Of a stretch of 64,000 nucleotides of DNA, positions 12,880 through 28,794 are shown in pieces. The stretch comes from Bacillota bacterium (GTDB taxonomy: Bacteria > Bacillota > Sulfobacillia > RBS10-35 > JAJYVN01). The translations under genes were made by a program, and so were the position numbers. The stretch's first letter is position 1, and every line of letters starts with the position of its first letter. Location: NCBI GenBank assembly GCA_021803205.1, contig JAJZMB010000114.1, positions 6,877 through 70,876 on the forward strand, given 5' to 3'. The notes below the pieces were generated by a model that saw nothing but the letters and a program-made list of their open reading frames with translations, had not been told where the DNA came from and made no database searches.

Positions 12880-13497
12880 TCACGGGTCGATCCGGCCCGA
12901 ACCGTGCCCGGGCGCCCCATCGCCGACCGTTTCCTCCAGGGCCTGCCGCACCGCCTGCCGGATCGTGTTCCGCGGCACTCGGCCCAGCGTGGTCAGCGTG
13001 ACCTCCCTGACCACCTCGGCCCAACTCGCCGGCCCGACGGGCCACCCCGCCGCCCGCCGCGTAGCGATGGCTTCGCGAATCGCCCCGGCAAGATCCGGCG
13101 TCATCGCCGCTTGCGGCGCCGCCGCCCATCGCCGGCCGGCATCCGGAGCCAGTGTGAAGCGGAAGGGCGGGACGCCCGCAGCGCAAGGATCGGAGCATTG
13201 CCGCCCCAGGGTATCCGCCGCCGCACGCGCATGTGCCACCACGTCGGCGACCCGCAGACCGAGGTGGTCGGGCGCATAGGGCTCCAGGTAGCGGACGGCG
13301 GCGACGAAGTGCCTGCGGGCACCGGTGGGATTGCCCCGCTCCAGTTTGACGAACGCCGCGGCGAACAGGATCAGTCCGTGCAGGAAGGGATCGGACTGCC
13401 GTTCCCACCACAGCGGTTCGAGCGCCTCATGGGCCTCGAAGAACCGGCCAGCGGCAAACTCCCGCAGGTAGGCCGCAAACGGGGCCGGAAGTCCCAC
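12880..13497 (-). CDS. DUF309 domain-containing protein
   Basis: FFEAHEALEPLW...GLILFAAA...GNPTGA; GTG start inferred. Confidence 0.75.
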   Translation of the reverse strand: MGLPAPFAAYLREFAAGRFFEAHEALEPLWWERQSDPFLHGLILFAAAFVKLERGNPTGARRHFVAAVRYLEPYAPDHLGLRVADVVAHARAAADTLGRQCSDPCAAGVPPFRFTLAPDAGRRWAAAPQAAMTPDLAGAIREAIATRRAAGWPVGPASWAEVVREVTLTTLGRVPRNTIRQAVRQALEETVGDGAPGHGSGRIDP

Positions 13498-14039
13498 TGG
13501 CCATTCCCCCGTGCCGATGGCGACGGCGCGCCCGACCCTGGCGGTCCCGGCGGCCCGGCGCCCAGCTTCGCCGTCCCGGCGGCGAAAGGATACCGTATAG
13601 GTGCGACATCGGTGGGCGGGCGACGCGGTGGGAGCAGTGCCTCTTGTCGCCGCGGCACTGCTCCCACCGGTCGTCGGCACAGCCCACGCCCTGGCGCTGA
13701 GGCTGGGCTGCGGTGGCAGGAGGATGGCGACACAGATCGGCGCCGCCAGACCCCAGGGCCGGCGTGAGCTGCGGCGCGCCTCACCGGCTTTCACCGCAGG
13801 ATCGGCGCGCCGCAGCAAGAACATCTCGTCGGCGCCGGCGGCGGAACCCCTGCCCTCCAAGGGGTGTGCGGCAGCATCTCAGACCCCGGTCCCGGCGCCC
13901 CCGCCGGTGGGCGCGGCGGAGTCCCGCACTCCCTGCCGCACCGACACGCAGGCAGGCCGGAACCTCTGCCTGACGCCATCACTGCATCCTGCGGCCGGCC
14001 GCCGCCGTACAGGACGTCGACCGGCCGAAGCCGGGCAGC

Positions 14040-14919: not shown

Positions 14920-16443
14920 TCAGGCTGGGGGCGCTGTCGGCCGCCCCGTCGTTGGCGCCGGAGGGTGCAAGCGCCCCGGGACCGGATGCGCCGAGCCTCG
15001 ACGGACCTCCCCGCTCCAGGACGCCGCCCCCGCCGTCCCCGCCGACTCCGAAAGGGCGGGTTTGAGCGTCCACGCTTGCAGCCGTGCCTGCAGCCACAAC
15101 TCCATGGGTGCGAATCCTTCCGCAAAGACCGGCCAGTCCCAGTGCAGACGCGCCGGCGGCTTGACGCAGACTTCGGCGGCGACCGCCCGCGGCGCGATGA
15201 CGACGGAGGTCTGCTCAGGATCGCGCAGGACGCGCGCGGCCGCGCTCAGGAAATCCGCCGGGGCCGCCACGGAACGACCGATCGGTATCGCGGACGGCAC
15301 CTGGCCGCGTTGGTCGATAAACCGGTCGCACCAACGGGCGGCCTCCACCAAGGCGCTTTGGGTCAGCGGGCCGGCGACGGAATCCGCTGGCGGCGGAGCT
15401 GACGGCCCGTCGCAGGCCCGCACGGCGATGGCGGCCGCATCGGGGACGCAGAGGGCCCTGCAGACCACACCCAGCGCCTCCGCCGCCGAAAGGGCAAGGC
15501 TGCCGCAAACCGCCCAACTCGCGTGTTCCAGGACGCAGGCGGCCATCGGCCGGATCTGCGCACCGGTCAAGCACGCATTCCGCGCGCGATCCGGGAAGCG
15601 GGCGGCCAGATCACGCGCCGTGATGAACTCCAGGCCCATCCCTCGCAATTCGGCCACAAACCGGCCCAAGGCCTCGGCCGCCGCCCCGACATCGGTCGCG
15701 GCTCGCAAAGGCGCCGGCCGCCAATCCCCCTCCTGCGGCATGCGCCCACGCCCAAAGTTCACCACATCCCAGAAGGCACTGGTGCACAGCTCCGTCGGAT
15801 GGGCCACGACACACAGCGGCGGACCGTCCGCAGGCAAGCGCCCCAGTGCGGAGTCCACCAGGGCCAGCGCTTCGTCCAGGCATCCGGGGAGTGCCGACAG
15901 GAACGGCTTGGGCGCGCAGACCGGCGGTGACCAGTGCAACAGCCCGAGGTAGTGGCAGGGGCGGCCGGAGAAGTCCAGATACGAGTTCCACGCCTCGCTG
16001 AACTCCATGGGAATCCGCCAAGTGCGCACCACCGCAAGCGCTGCGGCCGTCCAGTTGCCGCCAGGCTGCGTCCAACAGGCCAGGGGACCGAACGCCCCCT
16101 CCACCTCCGCGAACCCCGCGGCCTCCCGTGCGGCGAAGGCGGCCTGCGCCGCCGGCCAGCCCAGAGGAGCCAGTTCCTCGGCGATGGTGGGGTGCACGCT
16201 GTGGGTGTTCGAGTGATAGCCTACGGCGTGGCGCGCCAACCGCCCGATCAGCTGCCGGTGCCCCAGCTTGTCCCAGGAGCGCAGCTTTTCGGCCACCAAC
16301 GGAAAGGTGGCGGTGGCATCATGGCGCTCCAAAGCGTCCAACACCATCTCAAGGGCCGCGTCGCTTTCCGGGGTAAGGAAATCCTCCGTATCCATCCGGA
16401 TGGCCATCTCTGTGCCCGTTACCACCGCCGCCCTCCTGCGCAC
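14920..16443 (-). CDS. Polysaccharide deacetylase-like (CE4/NodB-fold) protein with C-terminal extension
   Basis: MDTED, ATFPLVAE, VGYHSNTHSVHP (HxxxH), HPTE; starts 10 nt after the glycosyltransferase stop. Confidence 0.65.
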   Translation of the reverse strand: MRRRAAVVTGTEMAIRMDTEDFLTPESDAALEMVLDALERHDATATFPLVAEKLRSWDKLGHRQLIGRLARHAVGYHSNTHSVHPTIAEELAPLGWPAAQAAFAAREAAGFAEVEGAFGPLACWTQPGGNWTAAALAVVRTWRIPMEFSEAWNSYLDFSGRPCHYLGLLHWSPPVCAPKPFLSALPGCLDEALALVDSALGRLPADGPPLCVVAHPTELCTSAFWDVVNFGRGRMPQEGDWRPAPLRAATDVGAAAEALGRFVAELRGMGLEFITARDLAARFPDRARNACLTGAQIRPMAACVLEHASWAVCGSLALSAAEALGVVCRALCVPDAAAIAVRACDGPSAPPPADSVAGPLTQSALVEAARWCDRFIDQRGQVPSAIPIGRSVAAPADFLSAAARVLRDPEQTSVVIAPRAVAAEVCVKPPARLHWDWPVFAEGFAPMELWLQARLQAWTLKPALSESAGTAGAASWSGEVRRGSAHPVPGRLHPPAPTTGRPTAPPA

Positions 16444-16452
16444 CTGCTGCCC

Positions 16453-17517
16453 CTAACCGTCCCCCCGACCGCTCGGGACCGGCCTGCATACCTCAGCATA
16501 CAGCCGGATGTGAGCCGCAGCCTCCGCCTGAGGCGAGAAGCGCTCCTGCACCGACGCCCGCGCCGCCGCGCCGAGTCGTGCCCGCAGGTCCGGTGCCCGT
16601 GCCAGGTGAACCGCCGCGTCCGGCAGGTTGCCGGGCATCGCCAGCCAGCCGTCCACACCGTGGCGGATCGCCGCCCGGTTTCCCGGAATGTCCGTCGCCA
16701 GAACGGCCCGCCCGGCCGCCATCCCTTCCAGCACGGCGTTGGAGAGGCCCTCCAGCCGGGATGTGTTCAGCACCACGTCGGCACGGCCATACCAGCCCTG
16801 AAGCTCCTGGCGCGGCACTTCTCCCAAGTAGTGAACGAACGGGATGCCGGCCAGGCGCCCCAGGAACGCCTGGTGGAAGGCGGGGTCGCGGGAGGGGCCG
16901 GCGATGTACAGGTGGACATCGCCTCCGGCCTCCCGGACGGCCGCCGCAGCGGACACGGCGAGGTCCGGATCCTTGATTGCGCGGATGCCCGCCGGCAGCA
17001 GGAACAGCAATCCCCGACCGGGCACGGCCGGTGCCGGCGGCCGTGCCCGGTCTATGGCGACCCCCGGCGGGATGACCCTCACCCGCTGCGCGGTCCCGGG
17101 CAACTCCCGCCGCACCTGGTGCGCGGCCCGCTCGTGGAAGGTGATCAGCGCGCGCACTGAGCGCGTGGCGGCGCGCAGCACAGCCAATTCACCCGGCTCC
17201 AGGTCCGTGCCGGTAAACGTCCAGATGACCGGAGAATGCGGTGCCCATTGCAACGCCGGCACCCCGGCCCACCGCGCGTGCAGGGCGTGGACGACCTCGT
17301 CCGGTCCGGGCGGGAGCTCTGCCGGCAGCGCATCCGCAGAAAGGATCCGGCTCTCGACGCCTTCCGCAGCTAGACCCGCAGCCAGCCGCCGGGCGGTGAC
17401 CAGGTTGCCCGCACTCGCCGGCAGGCCGGCGCGGACGATCAGATGGACCCGGCGGCACGCGCCGGGTGATGCTGGCGCAACTCCTCAACGGACGGGGCTG
17501 CACTTGGGCTCGGACAT
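16453..17517 (-). CDS. GT4 glycosyltransferase, SenB (selenosugar synthase)/GLT1D1-like; probable selenoprotein (UGA at codon 11, 17485-17487)
   Basis: Frame is open from ATG 17517 (RBS GGAGGA) except for one TGA. Motifs GNLVTARR, ALHA, TGTD, IRAIKD, EGLSNAVLE. No in-frame ATG/GTG/TTG lies between the TGA and the conserved N-terminal motifs. Confidence 0.75.
17447..17467 (-). promoter_or_regulatory. Candidate SECIS hairpin of the glycosyltransferase
   Basis: ACCCGGCG-cgtgc-CGCCGGGT, a perfect 8-bp stem starting 17 nt after the UGA, with GU in the loop. Confidence 0.55.
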
Positions 17518-17583
17518 CCGGACGCATTCCTCCCCAGCTGACCACTGCATAAGTCCGCTTTGCCGCGGCCACGGCTTCGAAGT

Positions 17584-17633
17584 CCCTTGGCCCCGAGGGC
17601 TCCACGGTTCGCGGCTGGTGTGGGAACCGACTC
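17584..17633. repeat. Dispersed 50-bp structured repeat, copy 2
   Basis: 43/50 identity to 22-71. Confidence 0.8.
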
Positions 17634-18124
17634 TTCCGCCGACGTCCCGGGTCGAAACGGCGGTGTCGACGGCGACCGCCTGCCCCCAGTGTATCAGGAT
17701 CGCGCCCCGCCGATGGTCAGCTCCCTGACGCTGCATCGGTCGTCCATGCCGGACCACGGCCGGGACCCAGGGCGCGCCCCCGCCCGCCGGGGGGGGCCCC
17801 GGTGCAGGTGCGCGCGTAGGCAGGGACGCCACCGTGCCCGGCGGATTCGGCTCCCCCGGCGGCGCGCGGTATCGGCCTGCTGCGCATGGGCCATCGCCCA
17901 TCGAATGGCGCCAGTGAACGGGCACGGCGCGGCCGCGGCGGGTGCCCGTCCATGCCCGCAGGTGCCCATCCCGGACAACGCCCGCCCGTCGCTGTTCACC
18001 GGCACCCCACACCCCCGCCGCGCCGGCATGCGTCTTTTGCATGCACTATATGCGTCGAGGATGCCGGTTTGGTAGGGTGGGCTTCAGTTGGGCGCCCAAG
18101 GAGCAAGGAGAGGATGCTCCCGCT

Positions 18125-19198
18125 ATGAATATGTCTGTTTCTGCGCAGCAGCGGCCGCGGCCGGGGGCCGCGATCGGGGTCGGCGTGTTTATCCTGCTCG
18201 CCTTGGCCGGTTTGTTCTACGTGAAGTGGGATCCCTATTTCCACAAGGCGTTCGTGGCTGCCGCGCACCACAGCATTGGCGCCTCGATCCTCAGCGGCCC
18301 AGCCGCCGGTGCGCCAGCGGCTGGCTGGAAGGCGGCCTGGGACTTCACGATCGCCTACGGCAAGGATATCTGGGAAGCCCTGATCGTGGGGCTGGTCCTC
18401 GGAGCCGGCGTCCAGGCCCTGCTGCCACGGTTGTGGCTGTTGCGTCTCCTGGGCGGGACGCGCTACCAGGGGACGGCTGTGGGAGGCCTCGCCGCCGTTC
18501 CGTCAATGATGTGAACGTGCTGCTCCGCCCCACTGGCGGTGGGGCTCACCCGTAGCGGGGCTTCCGTCGGATCCGTGCTCGCGTACTGGATCGGGAATCC
18601 CATCCTGAATCCGGCCACCATGGTCTTTATGGGCTTCGTGCTCGGTTGGCGTTGGGTGGCACTGCGGATTGTCGTCGGCGTGGTCCTGGTCTTCGGCGTG
18701 GCCTACGCGGCGCAACACCTGGTGCGGCCCGGCGACCTCCCGGAGGCGGCAGTCCAGGCACACGCCGCGGCGTTCGCCTCCGGCGACGACGGGTCGCTGT
18801 TCGGCCGCTGGATCACGGCCCTGTGGCGCCTGGCGATCGGCCTGGTGCCGGAGTATCTGGTCGTCGTGGTCGTCCTGGGCGCGGTCCGCGCATGGTTGTT
18901 CCCGGCGATGAGCCCGGCGGTCGGTCACAGCCTCTGGCTTGTTCTGGCGCTGGCCCTGACGGGCACCCTGTTTGTCGTTCCGACGGCGGGCGAGATACCC
19001 ATCGTCCAGACCCTGATGCATTTCGGTCTGGGTTCGGCGGGGGCGGGGGTGCTGCTGACGACGTTGCCGCCGGTGAGCCTGCCGTCACTGGTGATGGTGG
19101 GCCGCGCGCTGCCGGCCCGCGTGCTGTTTTTTGTCTCCGGCAGCGTTGTGGTCCTCGGGCTGCTGAGCGGGTTGGCGGCGGCAGCCCTGCACCTGTGA
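18125..19198 (+). CDS. YraQ-like DUF318/ArsP_1 family permease, selenoprotein (UGA 18512-18514)
   Basis: Two in-frame ORFs joined by one TGA in PSMM-U-TCCSAP, where E. coli YraQ has MMCTCCAAP (recalled). Also GLFYVKW, GNPILNPATMVFMGFVLGW, PTAGEIPI. Confidence 0.88.
18527..18545 (+). promoter_or_regulatory. Candidate SECIS hairpin of the permease
   Basis: GCCCCAC-tggcg-GTGGGGC; stem starts after a 12-nt spacer from the UGA, the same as in selD. Confidence 0.7.
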
Positions 19199-19318
19199 AG
19201 GGTTGCGCGGGCGTCTCCTCCGTTTTCCGTTCGGAAGCCAGCTGCGGTCCGCATCGGTCGCAAGAGATATCGGGTCTTGCCGATGGCACATGCGATGACC
19301 CGGAAGGGGGTGGCGCCC

Positions 19319-20374
19319 GTGGCTGTCCGTGACTTCACCCGCCTCACCAGCCTCGCTGCCTGCGCCGGGTGAGCGGCCAAGAAGGCGCCAGGGGACCTGG
19401 CGCACATGCTCCGCGGTTTCAGTGCGCTCTTTCCGGCCGAACTGACGCGCGAGCTGATCGTCGGGCTGGATGCGCCGGACGACGCCGCCGTGTATCGTTT
19501 GGACGAGCACCGCGCCCTGATCTTTACGGCCGACTACTTCCCCCCGGTCGTCGACGATCCGCGCGCGTACGGCGGCATCGCCGCTGCCAACGCGCTCAAC
19601 GACGTCTTCGCCATGGGCGGCAAGCCCGCCTTGGCGCTCAACCTGGCCTGCTTTCCTGACGACATGCCGTTCGAGGTGGCGAGGGAAATCCTTTGGGGCG
19701 GAGCCGAAAAGGCGCGGGAAGCCGGGGCGGTGGTGGCCGGGGGGCACACCACGCGCGGGGAGGAGCCTACTTACGGTCTGGCCGTGATCGGCTTCGTCGA
19801 CCCGGCGAAGCTGACGCGCAAGGGCGGGGCGATGCCCGGAGACCGCCTGCTGTTGAGCAAGCCCATCGGCAGCGGCGTTGTGACCACCGCCGGCAAGGGC
19901 GGTGCGGCCTCCCCGGCGGTGATCCGGGCAGCGGTCGCTTCGATGTCCCAGCTCAACGCGGCGGCGGCGGACGCAGCGGCAGTCACCGCCGCGCACACGG
20001 GCACGGATGTGACGGGCTTCGGCCTTGTGGGGCACGCCTTGGAGATGGCGGCACCCGCCGGCGTGGCCTTCCGCATCTTCCCCGCGCGCGTCCCGCTCTT
20101 GCCGGGGGCGGCGGACTGCGGGCGTGCGGAGTGGTTTCCGGGGGGCACGGCCAGGAACGAGGCGCACTTCGGCGGCCGTGTCCGGGCGGCGACCGATTTG
20201 GATCCGCTCCTGCGGCGCCTGATGTTCTCTCCGGAGACGGCGGGCGGCCTGCTGGTCGCCGTGCCCGCGGAACGCGTGCCGGATTTCGTCGCTGCGGCCC
20301 GCGCCGGTGGGCAGTCCGTATGGGAGATCGGCGAGGTCGTGGAGGGCACGGGGGTCGAACTGGCCTCCGTTTGA
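19319..20374 (+). CDS. selD: Selenide, water dikinase SelD, selenocysteine-containing (UGA 19370-19372)
   Basis: RLTSLAACAG-U-AAK active-site motif, DDAAVY, TADYFPPVVDDP, NALNDVFAMGG, GGHT, TDVTGFGL, PETAGGLL; GTG start with AAGGGGGTG RBS. Confidence 0.95.
19385..19403 (+). promoter_or_regulatory. SECIS hairpin of selD
   Basis: GCGCCAGG-gga-CCTGGCGC after a 12-nt spacer from the UGA. Confidence 0.75.
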
Positions 20375-20454: not shown

Positions 20455-22545
20455 TCACGCCAACCGCCGCACATCGCCCTCACGCCGGGTGACGTGGATC
20501 CCGTCCAGGTACTCTGCCAGGGGCACCGCAAACTTGCGCGTCACACCGAGCAGGTCGCGCAGTTCCGCCACCGTCAGCGTGCCGTGCTCCCGGAGGTACG
20601 TCCGTACCTGCGCCACCGCCGCCGCGAGCGACCGGGCGCCAAAGCACAGGCCCGCGTCCACCCGCGCCAGCCGACCCGTCTCCACCAGGTGGGCGAGCAG
20701 TTCGCCGCGCTCGGCATCGTCGCCGGAAAACCCCGAGGCCGCCAGCGCCTCCACCACTGGCGGGGGTTGCAGCCCAGCGGCCTCCAACGCCGTCACCAAC
20801 CGGTCCGCCACCGCGGCGAGGTCCGTCGGCAGGGCCGGCGTGTGCTCCGGCAGCGCCACCCGCTCCCCCTCGGATCGCACGCGGCCCTCCTCGGCCAGCC
20901 GCGCGACGATCGCGGCGGCCCCCCGGGCGTCGATCCCGGCCAGCGCCGCGCGGCGCAACTCCTCGCGGGGCATTCCCGGCCGCAGGGGATGACGCGCGTG
21001 GTAGTCCGCCAGCGCTTGCGCGACGGACGCACGGAGATCGTTCCAGCCATGGGCCGCGATGTATATCGCGGCCTCACCCGCACCCCCGAGGGCGATCAAC
21101 TCGGTGCCATCCACCAGCGCCTGCGCGCGCGGCTGCGCCTCCGCCACCGGCAGTCCCGCACGCTGTGCCGCGTTCGCCAGCGATCGCGGAGTGCTCCCAC
21201 TGAAAGCCGCCAGCAGCAGTTCGCGCGGGTCGCCCTTCTCCGCCAGCACCAACGCCTGCAGATCCGCAGTGCGGTATCGGCGGAAGCGATGGCCGACCTC
21301 GAGCACCGTGCCGCCGCCGACGGTGGCCACCGGGCTGTACGAACGCACGATGAAGCGGTCGCCGCGGCCGGCCGCGACCGGACGCTCAAGGCGGAGCATG
21401 GTGAAGGCGGAGGCCCCCGGTTCCAGGGTGTCGCCCTCCAGCAGGGTGGCGCGGCACAGTACCTCCGCGGTGCCCAGATGTAGGTGCAAACGCTGACCGT
21501 TCTTCAGGGGAGTGGCGTTGGCGGGCAGCGCCAGCAGCCGGACGGCCAGCAGGTCCGCGGCCCCGAGGCTACCGGGGGTCGCCAACACCTCGCCGCGGCG
21601 CACATCCGCGCGTCCGACGCCACCGAGGTTGACCGCGACACGCTGACCGGCGCGCACCCGTTCCACGGACCGGCCGTGCACCTGCAGGGCGCGCACCCGG
21701 ACGGACAGGCCCGCCGGCAGCAGTTCCAGGCGGTCGTCGACGGACACGGCGCCGGAGGTCAGCGTCCCGGTGACCACTGTGCCGAAACCGGCCACAGAGA
21801 AGACTCGGTCGACGGGCAGCCGGACAAAGCCGCGGTCCTGGTGCCCCTCCGCGCCGGCCAAGGTCGCGTCGAGGGCGCTGCGCAATTCGGGCAGCCCCTG
21901 CCCACCGAGGGCCGAAACCGACAGCAGTGGAACGCCGGCAAGGGGGGTGCCCCGCAGGTGGGCGCGGACGTCCTCGGTTACCAGCGCCAACCATTCCGCG
22001 TCCACCAGGTCGACCTTGGTCAAGGCGACGACCCCTGCCGTCACGCCGAGCAGCAGGGCGATGTCCAGGTGCTCACGCGTCTGCGGCATCACACCTTCGT
22101 TACCGGCGACGACCAGTAGCGCCAAGTCGATCCCGGTCGCGCCTGCGACCATGTTGCGGATGAAACGCTCATGTCCGGGGACATCGACGATTGCCGCGTG
22201 GCGCCCCGAGGGCAGGGCGAGGTCGGCAAAGCCCAGATCGATACTGATGCCCCGCCGCTTCTCCTCCGGCAGGCGGTCGGTGTCCACGCCGGTCAGCGCG
22301 CGCACCAGCGTGGTCTTGCCATGGTCGACATGGCCCACGGTGCCGATGACACCAGGCGGGACCGGCGCCGCGGCGGTTCCGCCCGATGTCGCGATCGGCG
22401 CGGGCGACGGCCTGCGCGACTCCTTGGGCAGAGTGATGACCCCCTTTCCGGCGTAGCAAGCCCTGTTGGCATGTGTCTGGATGCGCGGTACACGCCCCTT
22501 CGGCCGCGGCGGAGCCGTCGCCATCCCCGGTAGCAGCGGCTGCAC
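20455..22545 (-). CDS. selB: Selenocysteine-specific elongation factor SelB
   Basis: [34 protein letters not shown]; C-terminal winged helix [19 protein letters not shown]. Confidence 0.95.
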
Positions 22546-22557
22546 GGCGGCTCCCCC

Positions 22558-24006
22558 CTACCGGGTGCGCTCCAAAGCCGCAGCCACCAATTCCGGCAGG
22601 GCCTGCTCATCCTCCGGAAACAGAGTCCGCGGATCCAGCAGCACCGCATCCATCCGGATGCGGGCGACCACCGGGGGGTCGCCTCGCCGGAGCGCAGCGG
22701 CCAGAGCCTGCGCGCCGCACACCGCCGGGCGAAGCGCCACAACCGAAGTCGGCAGCGGGCAATCCGGCAGGGCGCCGGCACCCACGGCCGACTCTCCCGC
22801 TTCGATGCCGGCCTTGCAGGCCGTGCCCAACCGGTCTGAGAGGGAGTGCGCCATCCGCTGCGCCGCGGCCAACAGGTCCGGCGGCAACCGCGCCAACATG
22901 GCCAGCGCGGGCACGGCCTCTGCCGCCCGCCCGGCCCGGTACAGGTTCAGGGTGGCCTCCAGTGCCGCCAGCGTCATCTTGTCCACGCGCACGGCGCGGT
23001 GCAGCGGGTGGCGGGCACAGGCGCGCACGTGGTCGGCACTTCCGCAGATCAAGCCGGCCTGAGGACCGCCGAGCAGTTTGTCCCCACTGAAGGTGACCAC
23101 GTCCAGCCCGGTGGCCAGGGCGCTCCGCACGTCGATCTGTTCTGGGCTGCCGACCCCGGGAAGGTCCGGCGCCAGTGCCCCCGATCCCATGTCGTAGGCA
23201 ACGGGGACGTTATGCCGGCGCCCCACTTCCACAAGCTCCCTCAGGCTCGGCGCCGTGGCGAAGCCCACAATGCGAAAGTTGCTCTGATGCACCTTGAGCA
23301 GCAGCGCCGTGTCCGCCCCTACGGCGGCCGCGTAATCCCCGGCGTAGGTGCGGTTGGTGGTGCCGACCTCCCGCAGATGCGCCCCACTTTGGGTCAGCAC
23401 CTCCGGAACGCGAAAGCTGCCCCCGATCTCAACCAGTTCGCCACGCGAGACCACGACCTGCCTGCCAGCGGCCAGGGCGGACAGCAGCAGCAGCACCGCG
23501 GCGGCGTTGTTATTGACCACCAGTGCCGCCTCGGCACCCGTGATGGCCCGCAGATGTTCGGCGACCAGTGAGGAGCGATCGCCACGCTCCCCGGTATCCA
23601 GATCGAATTCCAGATTGCTGTAGCGCGTCGCGGTGGCGCGCACGGCTTCGGCCGCCGCCGGCGCCAGCGGCGCCCGCCCCAGACCTGTGTGCAGGACGAC
23701 GCCGGTGGCATTGATGACGCGATGCAGTCGGGGCCGACACTCCACAGTGAGGTGCGCGATCACGGACGCCGGCACATCCACGCCGTCAGGGAGCAGTCCC
23801 GCGCTGGGAGATTCCGCGCGGATCTCGTCCAGCACCGTTGCGCACGTGTTCCGCACCCGGGCACGGCCCACGCGCTCCACCCAGGGCAACAGGCGCGGAT
23901 CCGCCAGCAGTGCGTGCATCGCGGGGAGGCGTCCCGGACGGACGCCTGCCGTCGGGCGCGGGCACCTCCCGCCTGCGCCGCCCACCCCGCCAGGTATCGA
24001 TCCCAC
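22558..24006 (-). CDS. selA: L-seryl-tRNA(Sec) selenium transferase SelA
   Basis: VINATGVVLHTGLGRAPL, VNNNAAA, SRGELVEIGGSFR, EVGTTNRT, FSGDKLLGGPQAG; start inferred. Confidence 0.95.
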   Translation of the reverse strand: MGSIPGGVGGAGGRCPRPTAGVRPGRLPAMHALLADPRLLPWVERVGRARVRNTCATVLDEIRAESPSAGLLPDGVDVPASVIAHLTVECRPRLHRVINATGVVLHTGLGRAPLAPAAAEAVRATATRYSNLEFDLDTGERGDRSSLVAEHLRAITGAEAALVVNNNAAAVLLLLSALAAGRQVVVSRGELVEIGGSFRVPEVLTQSGAHLREVGTTNRTYAGDYAAAVGADTALLLKVHQSNFRIVGFATAPSLRELVEVGRRHNVPVAYDMGSGALAPDLPGVGSPEQIDVRSALATGLDVVTFSGDKLLGGPQAGLICGSADHVRACARHPLHRAVRVDKMTLAALEATLNLYRAGRAAEAVPALAMLARLPPDLLAAAQRMAHSLSDRLGTACKAGIEAGESAVGAGALPDCPLPTSVVALRPAVCGAQALAAALRRGDPPVVARIRMDAVLLDPRTLFPEDEQALPELVAAALERTR

Positions 24007-24605
24007 GTCCCTCTCCCTCTTCGTCGCGGCATCCGGAACCGGCCCAAGATCCGGCACCCAGCCTGCCTCCCCGTACTCAGCCACCGCGCCAGCGTCGACA
24101 TCTGCTTCAGTGCGAGCGTAGCGGGTTCCCGGCGTCCGCGTCCAGTCGGCGGCGGCAGCGCGCCAGCCGGACGCGAACCCGGTGCGCCGTACCGGTCCGC
24201 ACGGACGGCGCGCTGCCGGGCCCACGCTGGCCGCGGGACCAGTCCCCCTCTGCAGGCCCGTTGCGCCGATGCCCCACGTCCCCCATGGCCTCACCGTTCG
24301 CTTCCCCCGCTAAGCCCGATTTTGGCAGAGCCATTGCGGGCGTACGCGCGGCCGGGCGTCGGGCGTCACCACGCCCGGATACCGTGCTCCCGGAGCGGTC
24401 GTGGGGCTCCGGGAGTGCGGGGTGGGCTTTTGCCGCGAACTGGAGAGCAATCCTGACCCGGCACGCAGTTCCCGCGAGGTGTTTGGTGCGCCGTGCCGTA
24501 ATCTGCATCACTGTCCGGTGTGGGGTCTTCCGGCCATCCTGGCCGTGGCAGCCCTATCCCGGGTGCGGCGTGGGTGGGCTTTCCGCCGCGGCGGGTGGCA
24601 CATTT

Positions 24606-24700
24606 GGGAGTAGCAGGATGACTGGTGTCGCCCCCGGTCTTCAAAACCGGTGAGCCGGCTTCGGCCGGCTGGTGGGTTCGATTCCCACATGCTCCCGCCA
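24606..24700 (+). tRNA. selC: tRNA-Sec (anticodon UCA)
   Basis: CCGGT-CTTCAAA-ACCGG anticodon arm, long variable arm, GTGGG-TTCGATT-CCCAC T arm, encoded GCCA end; divergent from selA. Confidence 0.95.
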
Positions 24701-26115: not shown

Positions 26116-26793
26116 TCATCCCAGTTCCGCCAGGGCCTCCTCCACCGCCTCCACCCTCCGCCCGACGATGAACGGCGTCTCCGATTTCGTCCAGCGGCGG
26201 GCCTCGGCCTCCCGCAGACGCCGAATCAGGGCGGCGAAGCGCTCCGGCCGATCGCACTCGAAGGCCAGCAGCCACTCCCAATCGCCGAGACCGAAGGCCT
26301 GCACGTTGTTGGTCTGGATCTCGGGGAACTCCCGCCCCATCAGGCCGTGCTCACGCAGGATCCGCCCCCGCTCCGCATGCGGCAGCAAGTACCACTCCGG
26401 GGTGCGCACGAACGGGTAGAGGCAGAGGTAGCGCAGCGGCGGCTTGCCCAGTTGGAAACTGGCGTAGTGGTCCCCAACGTATTCCGGCTTGTGGGCTACG
26501 CCAAGAAAGGCGTGTGACAGATCACAGCAGCGGCCGAACAGCGTCCGCCGCAGCTCCGCCGCCACCGCCTGGATGGCCGCGACGTCTTCGGCCAGCAACC
26601 AGAAGGCCAGATCGGCGTCCGGCCGCAGGCCCGCCGTGCTGTAGACCCCACGGACGGTGACCTCGGGGTGGGCGCACAGCGCGTCGCGGACCTCCCTGGC
26701 GGCATCCCCGCGCGGGGCGCTCAGCCAGCGCCAGGTGCGCCGATAGACCAGAGTATGGGTGAACTGCGTCTCCGGAACCTGCAGCGTGCTCAC
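26116..26793 (-). CDS. hemQ: Coproheme decarboxylase / chlorite dismutase family (HemQ/ChdC)
   Basis: GVYSTAGLRPDADL, YPFVRTPEWYLL, EHG, AFGLGDWEWLLAFE. Confidence 0.8.
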   Translation of the reverse strand: MSTLQVPETQFTHTLVYRRTWRWLSAPRGDAAREVRDALCAHPEVTVRGVYSTAGLRPDADLAFWLLAEDVAAIQAVAAELRRTLFGRCCDLSHAFLGVAHKPEYVGDHYASFQLGKPPLRYLCLYPFVRTPEWYLLPHAERGRILREHGLMGREFPEIQTNNVQAFGLGDWEWLLAFECDRPERFAALIRRLREAEARRWTKSETPFIVGRRVEAVEEALAELG

Positions 26794-26895
26794 AGCGACC
26801 ACTCCCCGCAGAAGGCGGCCGGGTCTGGGGATCGGAGCCGCGACGCCGGCGCGGCCCATCCCGCCCACGCCGGCCTGCCTGAAAACTGGACCGCC

Positions 26896-28794
26896 TCAGC
26901 CCAAAAGGGTCTCCAACTCCTCGACCAGCCGTCCGAAGACCGCCATCGCGGCGTCTACCGGCCCGGGCGAGGCCATGTCCACCCCCGCCTCCCGCAGCAG
27001 GTCCACCGGATACTTGGACGCGCCGGCGCGCAGGAACCCCAGGTACCGTTGCCGCGCCGCCGCGCCGTCGCGGCAGATCGCCTCCGCCAGCGCCTGGGCA
27101 GCCGAGAAGCCGGTCGCATACTTGTACACGTAGAAGGCGTTATAGAAGTGGGGGATGCGCGCCCACTCCAGATCGATCTGCGGGTCGACCTCCACCTCCG
27201 GACCGTAGTAGGCCAGGTTGAGTTCGCGATAGGCCGCCGAGAGGGAGTCGGCCGTGAGCGCCTCCCCCGCCTCAGCCCTCTCGTGAATGACCTTTTCGAA
27301 CTCTGCGAACATGACCTGGCGGAAAACGGTCGTGCGGAACTCCTCCAGGTAGTGGTTCACCAGGTAGGCCCGCTGCCGCCGCTCCGTCGCCTGTTCCAGG
27401 AGGTGGCGCATCAGCAGGGACTCGTTCGCCGTGCTCGCCACCTCCGCCACAAAGATGGAGTGGCCGGCGTAGGGGTAGGGCTGCGTCTCCTGCGCCAGGT
27501 GGCTGTGCAATGCGTGCCCAAATTCATGGGCGATGGTGAACACATGGTCGATGCTGCCCTGGTAGTTGAGCAGCACAAAGGGGTGCACGCCGTAGACTCC
27601 CCAGGAGTAGGCTCCGCCGGTCTTGCCCTGGTTCTCGAAGACGTCGACCCAGCCCGAGGCCACGCCCTCGCAGTAACGGCGCACGTAGTCCTCCCCGAGG
27701 GGCGCAAGGCCCCGCTGCACCGTGCGCAGGGCCTCCGCGTAAGGGATGTGCGCCTCCGGCTCCTCCACCAGGGGCACGTGGAGGTCATACATGTGCAGGC
27801 GCTCCAGGCCGAGCGCGCGACGGCGCAAGCGCAAGTAGCGATGCAGCGCCGGGAGACTCCCACGCACTGCGGCGATCAGGTTCTCGTACACCGCGAGCGG
27901 GACGTTGTCGGCGTCCAGCGCCATCTGCAGGGAACTGGCGTAGCGGCGTGACTGGGCGTAGAACCAGTCGCGCTTGACCGACGCCGAGAGCAGGGCGCCC
28001 AGAGTGTTGCGCTGTTTGGCGTACGTGGCATATAGAGTCTCGAAGGACTCGCGGCGCACCGCGCGGTTTCCGCTCTCCATGAAGCGGATGAAGCGTCCCT
28101 TGGTGAGTTCCACAAGACGGCCCTGGTCGTCGTGCACGTTCGGAAAGGTCAGGTCGGCGTCGTTGAGCATGCCGAAGACGGTGTCCGGGGCACGCGCGAT
28201 CTCCCCGGCGCGGGCGAGCAGTTCCTCCTCGGGTGCGGAAAGCACGTGCGGCTTCTGGCGCAGGAGGTTGTCCAGCTTGTGCCGGTAAATCGCCAGGCCC
28301 GCCGCCTCCGGCGGGGGCGCCGCGCACCAGCGGCGGAGCCGCGCCTCGGGCAGGGAGAGGAGTTCGGGCTCGAAGTACGCCCAGGCACCCTCGATCTGCG
28401 TGGCCAGCATCGCCACGCGGCCCATCATCGCCTGGTAGGTGCTGACGCGGGTGTCCTCGTCGCTCCTCATGTGGGCGTAGGCGAAAAGCTTCTCAAGCTC
28501 CCGGCCTGTCTCGTCCTGGGTCGAGAGGGCCTGCAGCAGCACGCGCGGGCCCTCCCCCAAGCGCCCGCGGAAGCCTGCCGCCAGGGCGATCCGGCCCTGC
28601 AGCGCGGCCAAGGCGTCCTCCCATGCGGCGTCGTCCGAAAAGATGTCCTGCAGGTGCCAGCGGTGCTCGGGCGGGATGTCCGCCCGGGCCCGGAGGACAT
28701 CGGGACCGGGGGCGCCCGGTCCGCGCAGGCCCTCCGGCGCCCGGAGGGGAAGGATGGCCCGAGGATCGCCCGGGACGCGTCGCGAGCGCGGCAC
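26896..28794 (-). CDS. pepF: Oligoendopeptidase F (M3B)
   Basis: W.LQDIF, GKTGGAYS, AHEFGHALH, FVAEVAST, WARIPHFY, YVYKYATG; GTG start with AAGGAGG. Confidence 0.93.
   Translation of the reverse strand: MPRSRRVPGDPRAILPLRAPEGLRGPGAPGPDVLRARADIPPEHRWHLQDIFSDDAAWEDALAALQGRIALAAGFRGRLGEGPRVLLQALSTQDETGRELEKLFAYAHMRSDEDTRVSTYQAMMGRVAMLATQIEGAWAYFEPELLSLPEARLRRWCAAPPPEAAGLAIYRHKLDNLLRQKPHVLSAPEEELLARAGEIARAPDTVFGMLNDADLTFPNVHDDQGRLVELTKGRFIRFMESGNRAVRRESFETLYATYAKQRNTLGALLSASVKRDWFYAQSRRYASSLQMALDADNVPLAVYENLIAAVRGSLPALHRYLRLRRRALGLERLHMYDLHVPLVEEPEAHIPYAEALRTVQRGLAPLGEDYVRRYCEGVASGWVDVFENQGKTGGAYSWGVYGVHPFVLLNYQGSIDHVFTIAHEFGHALHSHLAQETQPYPYAGHSIFVAEVASTANESLLMRHLLEQATERRQRAYLVNHYLEEFRTTVFRQVMFAEFEKVIHERAEAGEALTADSLSAAYRELNLAYYGPEVEVDPQIDLEWARIPHFYNAFYVYKYATGFSAAQALAEAICRDGAAARQRYLGFLRAGASKYPVDLLREAGVDMASPGPVDAAMAVFGRLVEELETLLG

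Follow-up and report, generated by a model that had tools for sequence, protein, structure and literature searches.

How does a bacterium make a complete glycosyltransferase when the eleventh codon of the gene is UGA? The question is raised by a gene on the minus strand, at positions 16453-17517, of a 64,000-nucleotide (nt) stretch of DNA from a member of the Bacillota (assembly GCA_021803205.1, contig JAJZMB010000114.1), which at its full length is referred to here as the window. The gene encodes an enzyme of glycosyltransferase family 4 (GT4) that resembles SenB, and it lies close to genes for the insertion of selenocysteine (Sec). We consider it likely that the UGA is decoded as Sec and that the product is a new candidate selenoprotein, a SenB-like GT4 enzyme with Sec at codon 11; the case is built from comparisons of sequences and predicted structures.

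An in-frame UGA ahead of the first strand

The proposed start of the glycosyltransferase is an ATG at 17517-17515 (minus strand), read directly from the DNA and aligned with the called start Met of four orthologues, with a Shine-Dalgarno-like GGAGGA at 17533-17528 (minus strand) lying 10 nt before it, a rather long spacing. The ATG and nine sense codons (MSEPKCSPVR) are followed in the same frame by a TGA at 17487-17485 (minus strand), the proposed Sec codon, and then by 343 uninterrupted codons, containing the motif AGNLVTARR, up to a TAG stop at 16455-16453 (minus strand). The whole frame, recognized as GT4 by family and structure matches, would specify 354 residues with Sec at position 11. 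Cys occurs at residues 6 and 21, the latter encoded by TGC at 17455-17457 (minus strand) and forming with the UGA a putative U-x9-C pair. A preliminary description of this locus had listed the ribosome-binding site, ATG, TGA, open frame, GN.VTARR motif, a hairpin after the TGA and the Cys residues at 6 and 21, and all were found as it described them. The frame upstream of ATG 17517 is likewise open, back to 18042. That upstream open frame (17485-18042, 185 aa) was considered as part of the gene and rejected, as it has no Pfam match and is broken in other strains by a 1-nt deletion at 17683.

Past the TGA, the earliest in-frame ATG, GTG or TTG is the GTG at 17262, codon 75 of the 343-codon frame, which lies deep within the domain. 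Of the 12 codons from the TGA to the first strand of the fold, RVHLIV, none is a canonical or one-off start codon, either in the window gene or in its orthologue in a genome of another genus of the same family (G004). The two best-matching NCBIfam profiles, NF038229 and TIGR04348, both begin at RVHLIV, 12 codons past the TGA, and the V and L of this strand do not vary among the 12 orthologues aligned. The invariant strand is encoded downstream of the UGA and no start intervenes, so that a complete enzyme, to judge from the reading frame, cannot be made unless the ribosome passes the UGA. The recorded annotations cover less than this: the window's glycosyltransferase is recorded as a 244-aa fragment and that of G004 (P0011) as a 339-aa form without the first strand.

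The window derives from a metagenome-assembled genome, and a TGA at this place might be an error of sequencing or assembly, for which the preliminary description had proposed a check by read mapping. Logan contigs of sequencing runs in four other studies match the window exactly over 17427-17602 and retain the TGA. For three of the four, contigs extend over all of 17200-17800, where the sole changes are G>A at 17325 (Pro-to-Ser) and the 1-nt deletion at 17683. The independent genome G004 carries the TGA too, so that an error is excluded and this explanation is effectively refuted. The gene is moreover clearly under purifying selection, since identity between the window gene and that of G004 over 342 aligned codons is 76, 75 and 47% at the first, second and third codon positions.

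Orthologues with and without the UGA

To place the UGA among relatives, the N-termini of glycosyltransferase genes were inspected at 31 loci in genomes of the same class, including the window's own (G000), and at 20 metagenome loci in a scan of the best 80, of which three matched only partly and 17 were assessable. An ordinary start stands just ahead of the first strand in 29 of the 30 other genome loci, typically as M-R-[IV]-x-L-[IV]-[IV]. None of the 17 assessable metagenome loci has a TGA in place of the start, all having ordinary start codons; the best listed locus is only 47% identical, and the closer orthologues known as proteins (P0002-P0007) are absent from the best 80. The lone exception among the 30 genome loci is G004, whose protein is 64% identical and whose gene reads ATG, 10 or 16 codons, TGA and then ADGPPPPGACRRVHLVV; this TGA lies 13 codons before VHL, a distance equal to that in the window. 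The TGA is thus present in two (G000 and G004) of the seven f1/f5 genome orthologues inspected, the other five having ordinary starts, and a scan of the genome collection again returned G004 and G001 as the only close relatives.

A third genus, represented by genome G003, has a 14-nt deletion after the TGA. Here translation of the enzyme begins at a GTG that a good Shine-Dalgarno sequence precedes, and there is no hairpin; from these three genomes the UGA and the hairpin appear to occur together (G000, G004) and to be lost together (G003). G003 also retains (L003, 1440-1480) a mini-frame of the form ATG-N27-TGA, 10 codons long (MSEGRGAHVG), which aligns with the leaders of G000 and G004 and which the 14-nt deletion has put out of frame with the enzyme. 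This mini-frame may be a relic of a Sec form, or it may be a leader with a role of its own.

Comparison at the protein level (alignment A3) brings in orthologues, labelled P, that came from a protein search and are closer than those in the genome collections. The Met of ATG 17517 falls in column 1 of this alignment together with the called start Met of P0004, P0003, P0002 and P0005. Column 11 holds the UGA in both G000 and G004 (64% identical to G000) and column 21 a Cys, giving U-x9-C in each. P0004 (68% identical) has Cys in both columns, C-x9-C, while P0003 (70%) has Cys one column before column 11 and again in column 21, C-x10-C. There is no Cys at column 11 in P0002 (71%) or P0005 (66%), which have Cys and Arg, respectively, at column 21. 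The Cys21 column therefore contains Cys in five of the six orthologues with a long N-terminal arm; Cys21 is conserved and Cys6, which is His in G004, is not. A Cys in the UGA column combined with a shared start column is, at the level of this alignment, the classical signature of a Sec codon. In three more protein matches (P0010, P0012 and P0020) the called N-terminus is truncated, and these may be further UGA forms.

A maximum-likelihood tree was built from G000, G004 and 24 of the 43 protein matches, 26 rows in all, and both UGA forms fall within one clade of 15 rows (support 100/99). They are not sisters within it: G004 groups with P0006, G003 and P0009 (81/94), and most of the clade is poorly resolved. 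Since the two forms are not sisters, the state with UGA and hairpin appears to be old and to have been lost more than once. Repeated loss is common for Sec.

These comparisons also bear on an explanation that dispenses with read-through, in which the ATG, ten codons and TGA form a leader that terminates, the enzyme is produced from a rare or weak start in the first strand (codon 16) or by re-initiation, and the hairpin regulates initiation. It draws on codon 16 being ATC in G000 and GTG in G004, both starts in translation table 11, on the choice of that GTG by gene callers for G004 (P0011), and on the retention by G003 of a mini-frame that does not share the reading frame of its enzyme. A start at codon 16 would nonetheless delete the RVHLIV strand with its two invariant residues. 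ATC is a very rare start codon, and codon 16 has no Shine-Dalgarno-like sequence ahead of it and is only 7 nt from the end of the stable hairpin; moreover, the Cys in the TGA column of P0004 and the shared Met column would be left unexplained. We regard a terminating leader as quite unlikely.

A candidate SECIS element and the adjacent selenium genes

Sec insertion at the UGA would call for a selenocysteine insertion sequence (SECIS) element nearby, and the candidate is a perfect 8-bp hairpin, ACCCGGCG-CGUGC-CGCCGGGU, at 17467-17447 on the minus strand, nt 21-41 counted from the U of the UGA. Its stem comprises nt 21-28 and 34-41, and its loop, CGUGC, lies at 17459-17455 (nt 29-33), with GU at nt 30-31. 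A perfect 8-bp hairpin at the matching position follows 487 of the 66,131 TGA triplets of the genome (0.74%). The eight codons that form the hairpin (PGACRRVH) are all identical between G000 and G004, whereas residues identical between the two proteins are encoded by an identical codon in only 48% of cases. The result is a 26-nt identical run, the longest between the two genes, the next longest being 17 nt. Folding energy was of no help: for the 60 nt after the three UGAs of the window (those of the glycosyltransferase, selD and permease genes) and after the G004 site, no energy was better than that of shuffled sequences (z from -0.05 to -0.49), so that energy alone provides no evidence.

Hairpins at other proposed Sec codons offer a comparison of geometry. 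Those of the neighbouring selD and permease genes have in common a stem at nt 16-23 and 27-34 with the loop GGA or GGC. A selD paralogue present in G004, G005 and G002 has its stem at nt 22-29 and 35-42 after the UGA, with the loop GGUC, and in G002 an alternative upstream hairpin is broken while the 22-29/35-42 stem is kept. The glycosyltransferase hairpin agrees with this paralogue to within 1 nt, a match that gives moderate support, short of proof, to the hairpin as a candidate SECIS. From its position, conservation and geometry we infer that it is probably the SECIS element of the glycosyltransferase gene.

A hairpin downstream could instead stimulate a programmed frameshift from another frame, and a second frame, from GTG 17605 to 17189, is indeed open across the site. 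No slippery heptamer common to G000 and G004 was found upstream of the hairpin, though, and in each genome the enzyme's own frame already contains both ATG and TGA; we consider frameshifting very improbable next to Sec insertion.

The genes required for Sec insertion are at hand, the window encoding all four of selA, selB, selC and selD. On the minus strand are selB (20455..22545; 365 bits for TIGR00475, cut-off 242) and selA (22558..24294; 531 bits for TIGR00474, cut-off 268), and on the plus strand the tRNA-Sec gene with anticodon TCA (24606..24700; ARAGORN). Also on the plus strand are selD (19283..20374; TIGR00476, 335 bits), with an in-frame TGA at 19370-19372 in the context AG-U-AAKK, and, divergent from the glycosyltransferase, an ArsP-type permease (18125..19198; PF03773, 69 bits) with an in-frame TGA at 18512-18514 in the context MM-U-TCCSAPL. 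The tRNA-Sec, selA and selB genes and the two genes with proposed Sec codons, selD and permease, all lie within 7 kb of the glycosyltransferase.

Both neighbouring UGAs recur in relatives. The selD TGA and its hairpin are conserved in all five family genomes searched, and those of the permease (8-bp hairpin, loop GGC) in G004, G003 and the metagenome locus L072. The permease TGA replaces the first Cys of a CxC motif. Passages of a preprint (10.1101/2022.07.06.499078) describe Cu/Zn efflux transporters of the SO_0444 family as selenoproteins with a USC motif; the window permease is like them in that Sec would replace the first Cys of CxC, its own motif being U-T-C. Its relation to the SO_0444 family is distant: it scores only 44 bits for NF033936, where the cut-off is 300, and 48 bits for SaoE, and on these scores it is a separate branch of PF03773.

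With the Sec system in view, a further alternative can be weighed, namely that the UGA is passed by low-level near-cognate read-through (as Trp or Cys) or mostly terminates translation, the gene being weakly expressed or on its way to loss, with no Sec involved. An arm that is poorly conserved and dispensable in relatives, and a hairpin unlike the SECIS elements of the selD and permease genes nearby, would fit such a gene. It is harder to reconcile with a 343-codon frame kept intact in two genera at the codon-position identities given above, with a UGA and hairpin preserved in the 26-nt identical run across a deep split, and with a complete Sec system next door. We judge this alternative unlikely and infer that Sec, rather than another residue, is inserted at the UGA. 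Read-through of the UGA, most likely as Sec, was the core claim of the preliminary description, and it is backed by the TGA and hairpin in G004, the Cys of P0004, the absence of a downstream start, purifying selection and the adjacent Sec machinery.

Several observations weigh against a Sec codon. Only two UGA-bearing genes were inspected at the DNA level, and the start of P0004, known from protein only, is the choice of a gene caller. Among the six long-arm orthologues, two (P0002 and P0005) have no Cys near the UGA column, and P0006, P0008, P0009, P0014, P0021 and P0024 have a shorter N-terminus without the arm. Because two long-arm orthologues do without the Cys and many others do without the arm, neither the fold nor, probably, catalysis appears to need the residue in the UGA column, which is unusual for Sec. 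The residues flanking the UGA are not conserved (VR-U-GV in G000 and AA-U-AD in G004), and residues 1-19 of the AlphaFold model are predicted to be disordered, with a predicted local distance difference test (pLDDT) score below 50. In geometry the hairpin is unlike those of selD and the permease nearby, the 60 nt that follow the glycosyltransferase TGA fold with an energy ordinary for G+C-rich DNA (z = -0.16), and an Rfam search of 16400-19500 in E-value mode returned no match. If the G003 mini-frame is a leader with its own role, that too would count against Sec.

Some observations on the surrounding selenium genes may be added. The selD hairpin, GCGCCAGG-GGA-CCUGGCGC, is near-identical in six genomes of the family, and relatives have one or two extra selD paralogues with differing hairpin geometry (loop GGUC). 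G000 has a second selD, without an internal TGA, on contig C132, where it is adjoined at ~26211-28154 by a divergent second LysR-type gene (35% identical to the regulator of G003). A gap of ~600 nt (17518-18124) divides the divergent permease and glycosyltransferase genes of the window. In G004 and G003 a LysR-type regulator stands between the two, on the glycosyltransferase strand; no LysR remnant was found in the window, G000 having its orthologue (63% identical) on contig C10. As an extra SECIS control, Sec-containing formate dehydrogenase (TIGR01591) was sought in the window's own genome; the three matches were weak and free of internal stops, and so provided no additional control. A rough screen of the genome for UGA-interrupted genes by frame-specific G+C content gave 16 candidates, mostly adjacent genes; it missed the selD and permease controls and was dropped.

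The enzyme, its partner and a proposed pathway

The glycosyltransferase matches the Pfam families Glyco_trans_1_4, Glycos_transf_1 and Glyco_transf_4. Among NCBIfam models it matches NF038229 ("GPMC system family 4 glycosyltransferase") best, with 248 bits where the cut-off is 400; this profile aligns over its full length, positions 1-337, to residues 23-344. The second best is SenB itself (TIGR04348, 93 bits, cut-off 300). The NF038229 profile starts at the first strand and has no counterpart of the arm; a literature search on "GPMC system" found no paper. SenB chains are the best matches in the Protein Data Bank (PDB) by sequence (E 8e-9). The AlphaFold model (mean pLDDT 87), in which RVHLIV forms residues 23-28, has SenB structures as its top nine fold matches, with template modelling (TM) scores of 0.69-0.80 and 23-26% identity.

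SenB (TIGR04348; PDB 8jjn, 8jjt, 8rz3, 8k5u, 8fbx) is the selenosugar synthase of selenoneine biosynthesis, and the window enzyme has its GT-B/GT4 fold in common with it. Passages of PMC10891094 assign nine SenB residues to the choice of sugar, to the pocket for selenophosphate and to Se-P cleavage. When compared with these by phmmer alignment (8jjn/8jjq), the window enzyme is identical at eight of the nine, N20, T23, H58, T83, T85, R155, K158 and E231, while the ninth, R61, aligns to Trp. The SenB motif EGGAHV reads EGLSNA, with only the Glu and the first Gly kept. The description of the enzyme as SenB-like, made in the preliminary description, thus holds for the nearest solved structure and for eight of the nine residues, and has to be qualified in that the score is below the SenB cut-off and the best family is NF038229. 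Taken together, the profiles and the model indicate an enzyme that is SenB-like in fold and in most of the named residues and lies outside the curated SenB family. The vicinity of selD recalls that of senC in sen clusters. The two enzymes differ in that the SenB chains aligned have no N-terminal Sec/Cys arm and that the partner in the window is a 507-aa deacetylase-like protein.

In the mechanism that we propose, translation would start at ATG 17517 and pass the codon-11 UGA by Sec insertion, the conserved hairpin 17-38 nt downstream being the SECIS to which SelB binds. SelB, whose gene lies at a distance of 3 kb, would bring Sec-tRNA to the UGA, aided by that hairpin. This would yield an enzyme of 354 residues in which a flexible N-terminal arm, with the pair U11-x9-C21, precedes the first Rossmann-fold strand. 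Because some orthologues are without the first Cys or without the whole arm, the arm must, on this comparison, be accessory and outside the catalytic core. By analogy with SenB, the enzyme could make a seleno-sugar from selenophosphate and a UDP-sugar, although this is speculative. The two functions suggested in the preliminary description are equally speculative: the Sec/Cys arm might bind or pass on reactive selenium species, or the UGA might do no more than make production of the enzyme depend on how much Sec is available.

Searches of the literature, judged by title or the start of the abstract, found no Sec-containing bacterial glycosyltransferase. The word "glycosyltransferase" does not occur in the main text (supplements aside) of a 2026 review (PMC13188914) or of the preprint 10.1101/2022.07.06.499078. 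In HgcA, according to passages of that preprint, Sec was found in a previously missed N-terminal extension, next to a Cys, in a protein whose annotation was truncated. The window enzyme is likewise truncated in annotation, with its proposed Sec codon in an N-terminal extension. It differs from HgcA in having U-x9-C where HgcA has a CU motif, in protein family and chemistry, and in being represented by two UGA cases only. On these comparisons the glycosyltransferase is a candidate new family of bacterial selenoproteins. If the UGA does encode Sec, a new selenoprotein family would be added, the truncated annotations (244 aa in the window and 339 aa in G004) would be corrected, and Sec would be located on an enzyme most closely related to one that forms carbon-selenium bonds.

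The 507-aa partner (14920..16443, minus strand) starts 10 nt after the glycosyltransferase stop, and it adjoins the glycosyltransferase in 32 other loci from genomes of the class and metagenomes. It may be similar to carbohydrate esterase family 4 (CE4) or polysaccharide deacetylases: Pfam PF01522 is matched only at E = 0.17, and the clusters closest to it in structure in the Atlas bear the name polysaccharide deacetylase, a lead and no more. The label "coupled deacetylase" in the preliminary description thus depends on a weak sequence match and a predicted-fold likeness. The module of the two genes (14920-17517, minus strand, in the window; loci L035-L056 and L072) is conserved across the class. 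Next to it or nearby is selD in the window (1.9 kb from the glycosyltransferase), in G101, in G012 and at the metagenome locus L072, and in G101 and L072 the permease adjoins the module as well. Across the class, selD is present in 50 of 53 glycosyltransferase-positive and 90 of 156 glycosyltransferase-negative genomes, which are not independent of one another, and no selD was found at E <= 1e-30 in the glycosyltransferase-positive genomes G138, G139 and G143. This co-occurrence is loose and gives weak support to a link between the two genes.

No EgtB- or SenA-type family was matched among the neighbouring open reading frames (ORFs) submitted, a search that included no SenA model. The gene content of the module together with selD hints at a selenium-linked small-molecule pathway without SenA, and the conserved set of Sec-permease, Sec-SelD, glycosyltransferase and deacetylase-like protein would point to a possible pathway outside the known sen and ovs clusters. 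A more far-reaching proposal, which is possible but which we hold as doubtful, is that a selenium-transferring glycosyltransferase is itself a selenoprotein within an undescribed selD-linked pathway of the Bacillota, in which Sec-permease, SelD, SenB-like glycosyltransferase and deacetylase-like partner would make a metabolite derived from a seleno-sugar. The U-x9-C arm would then be a covalent selenium relay or a product-protecting arm, holding the selenol as a selenenyl-selenide or selenenyl-sulfide, or else the UGA would make production of the selenium-consuming enzyme dependent on Sec-tRNA supply. Downstream of the module, at 12880-13860 on the minus strand, lies a 326-aa ORF with a DUF309 domain.

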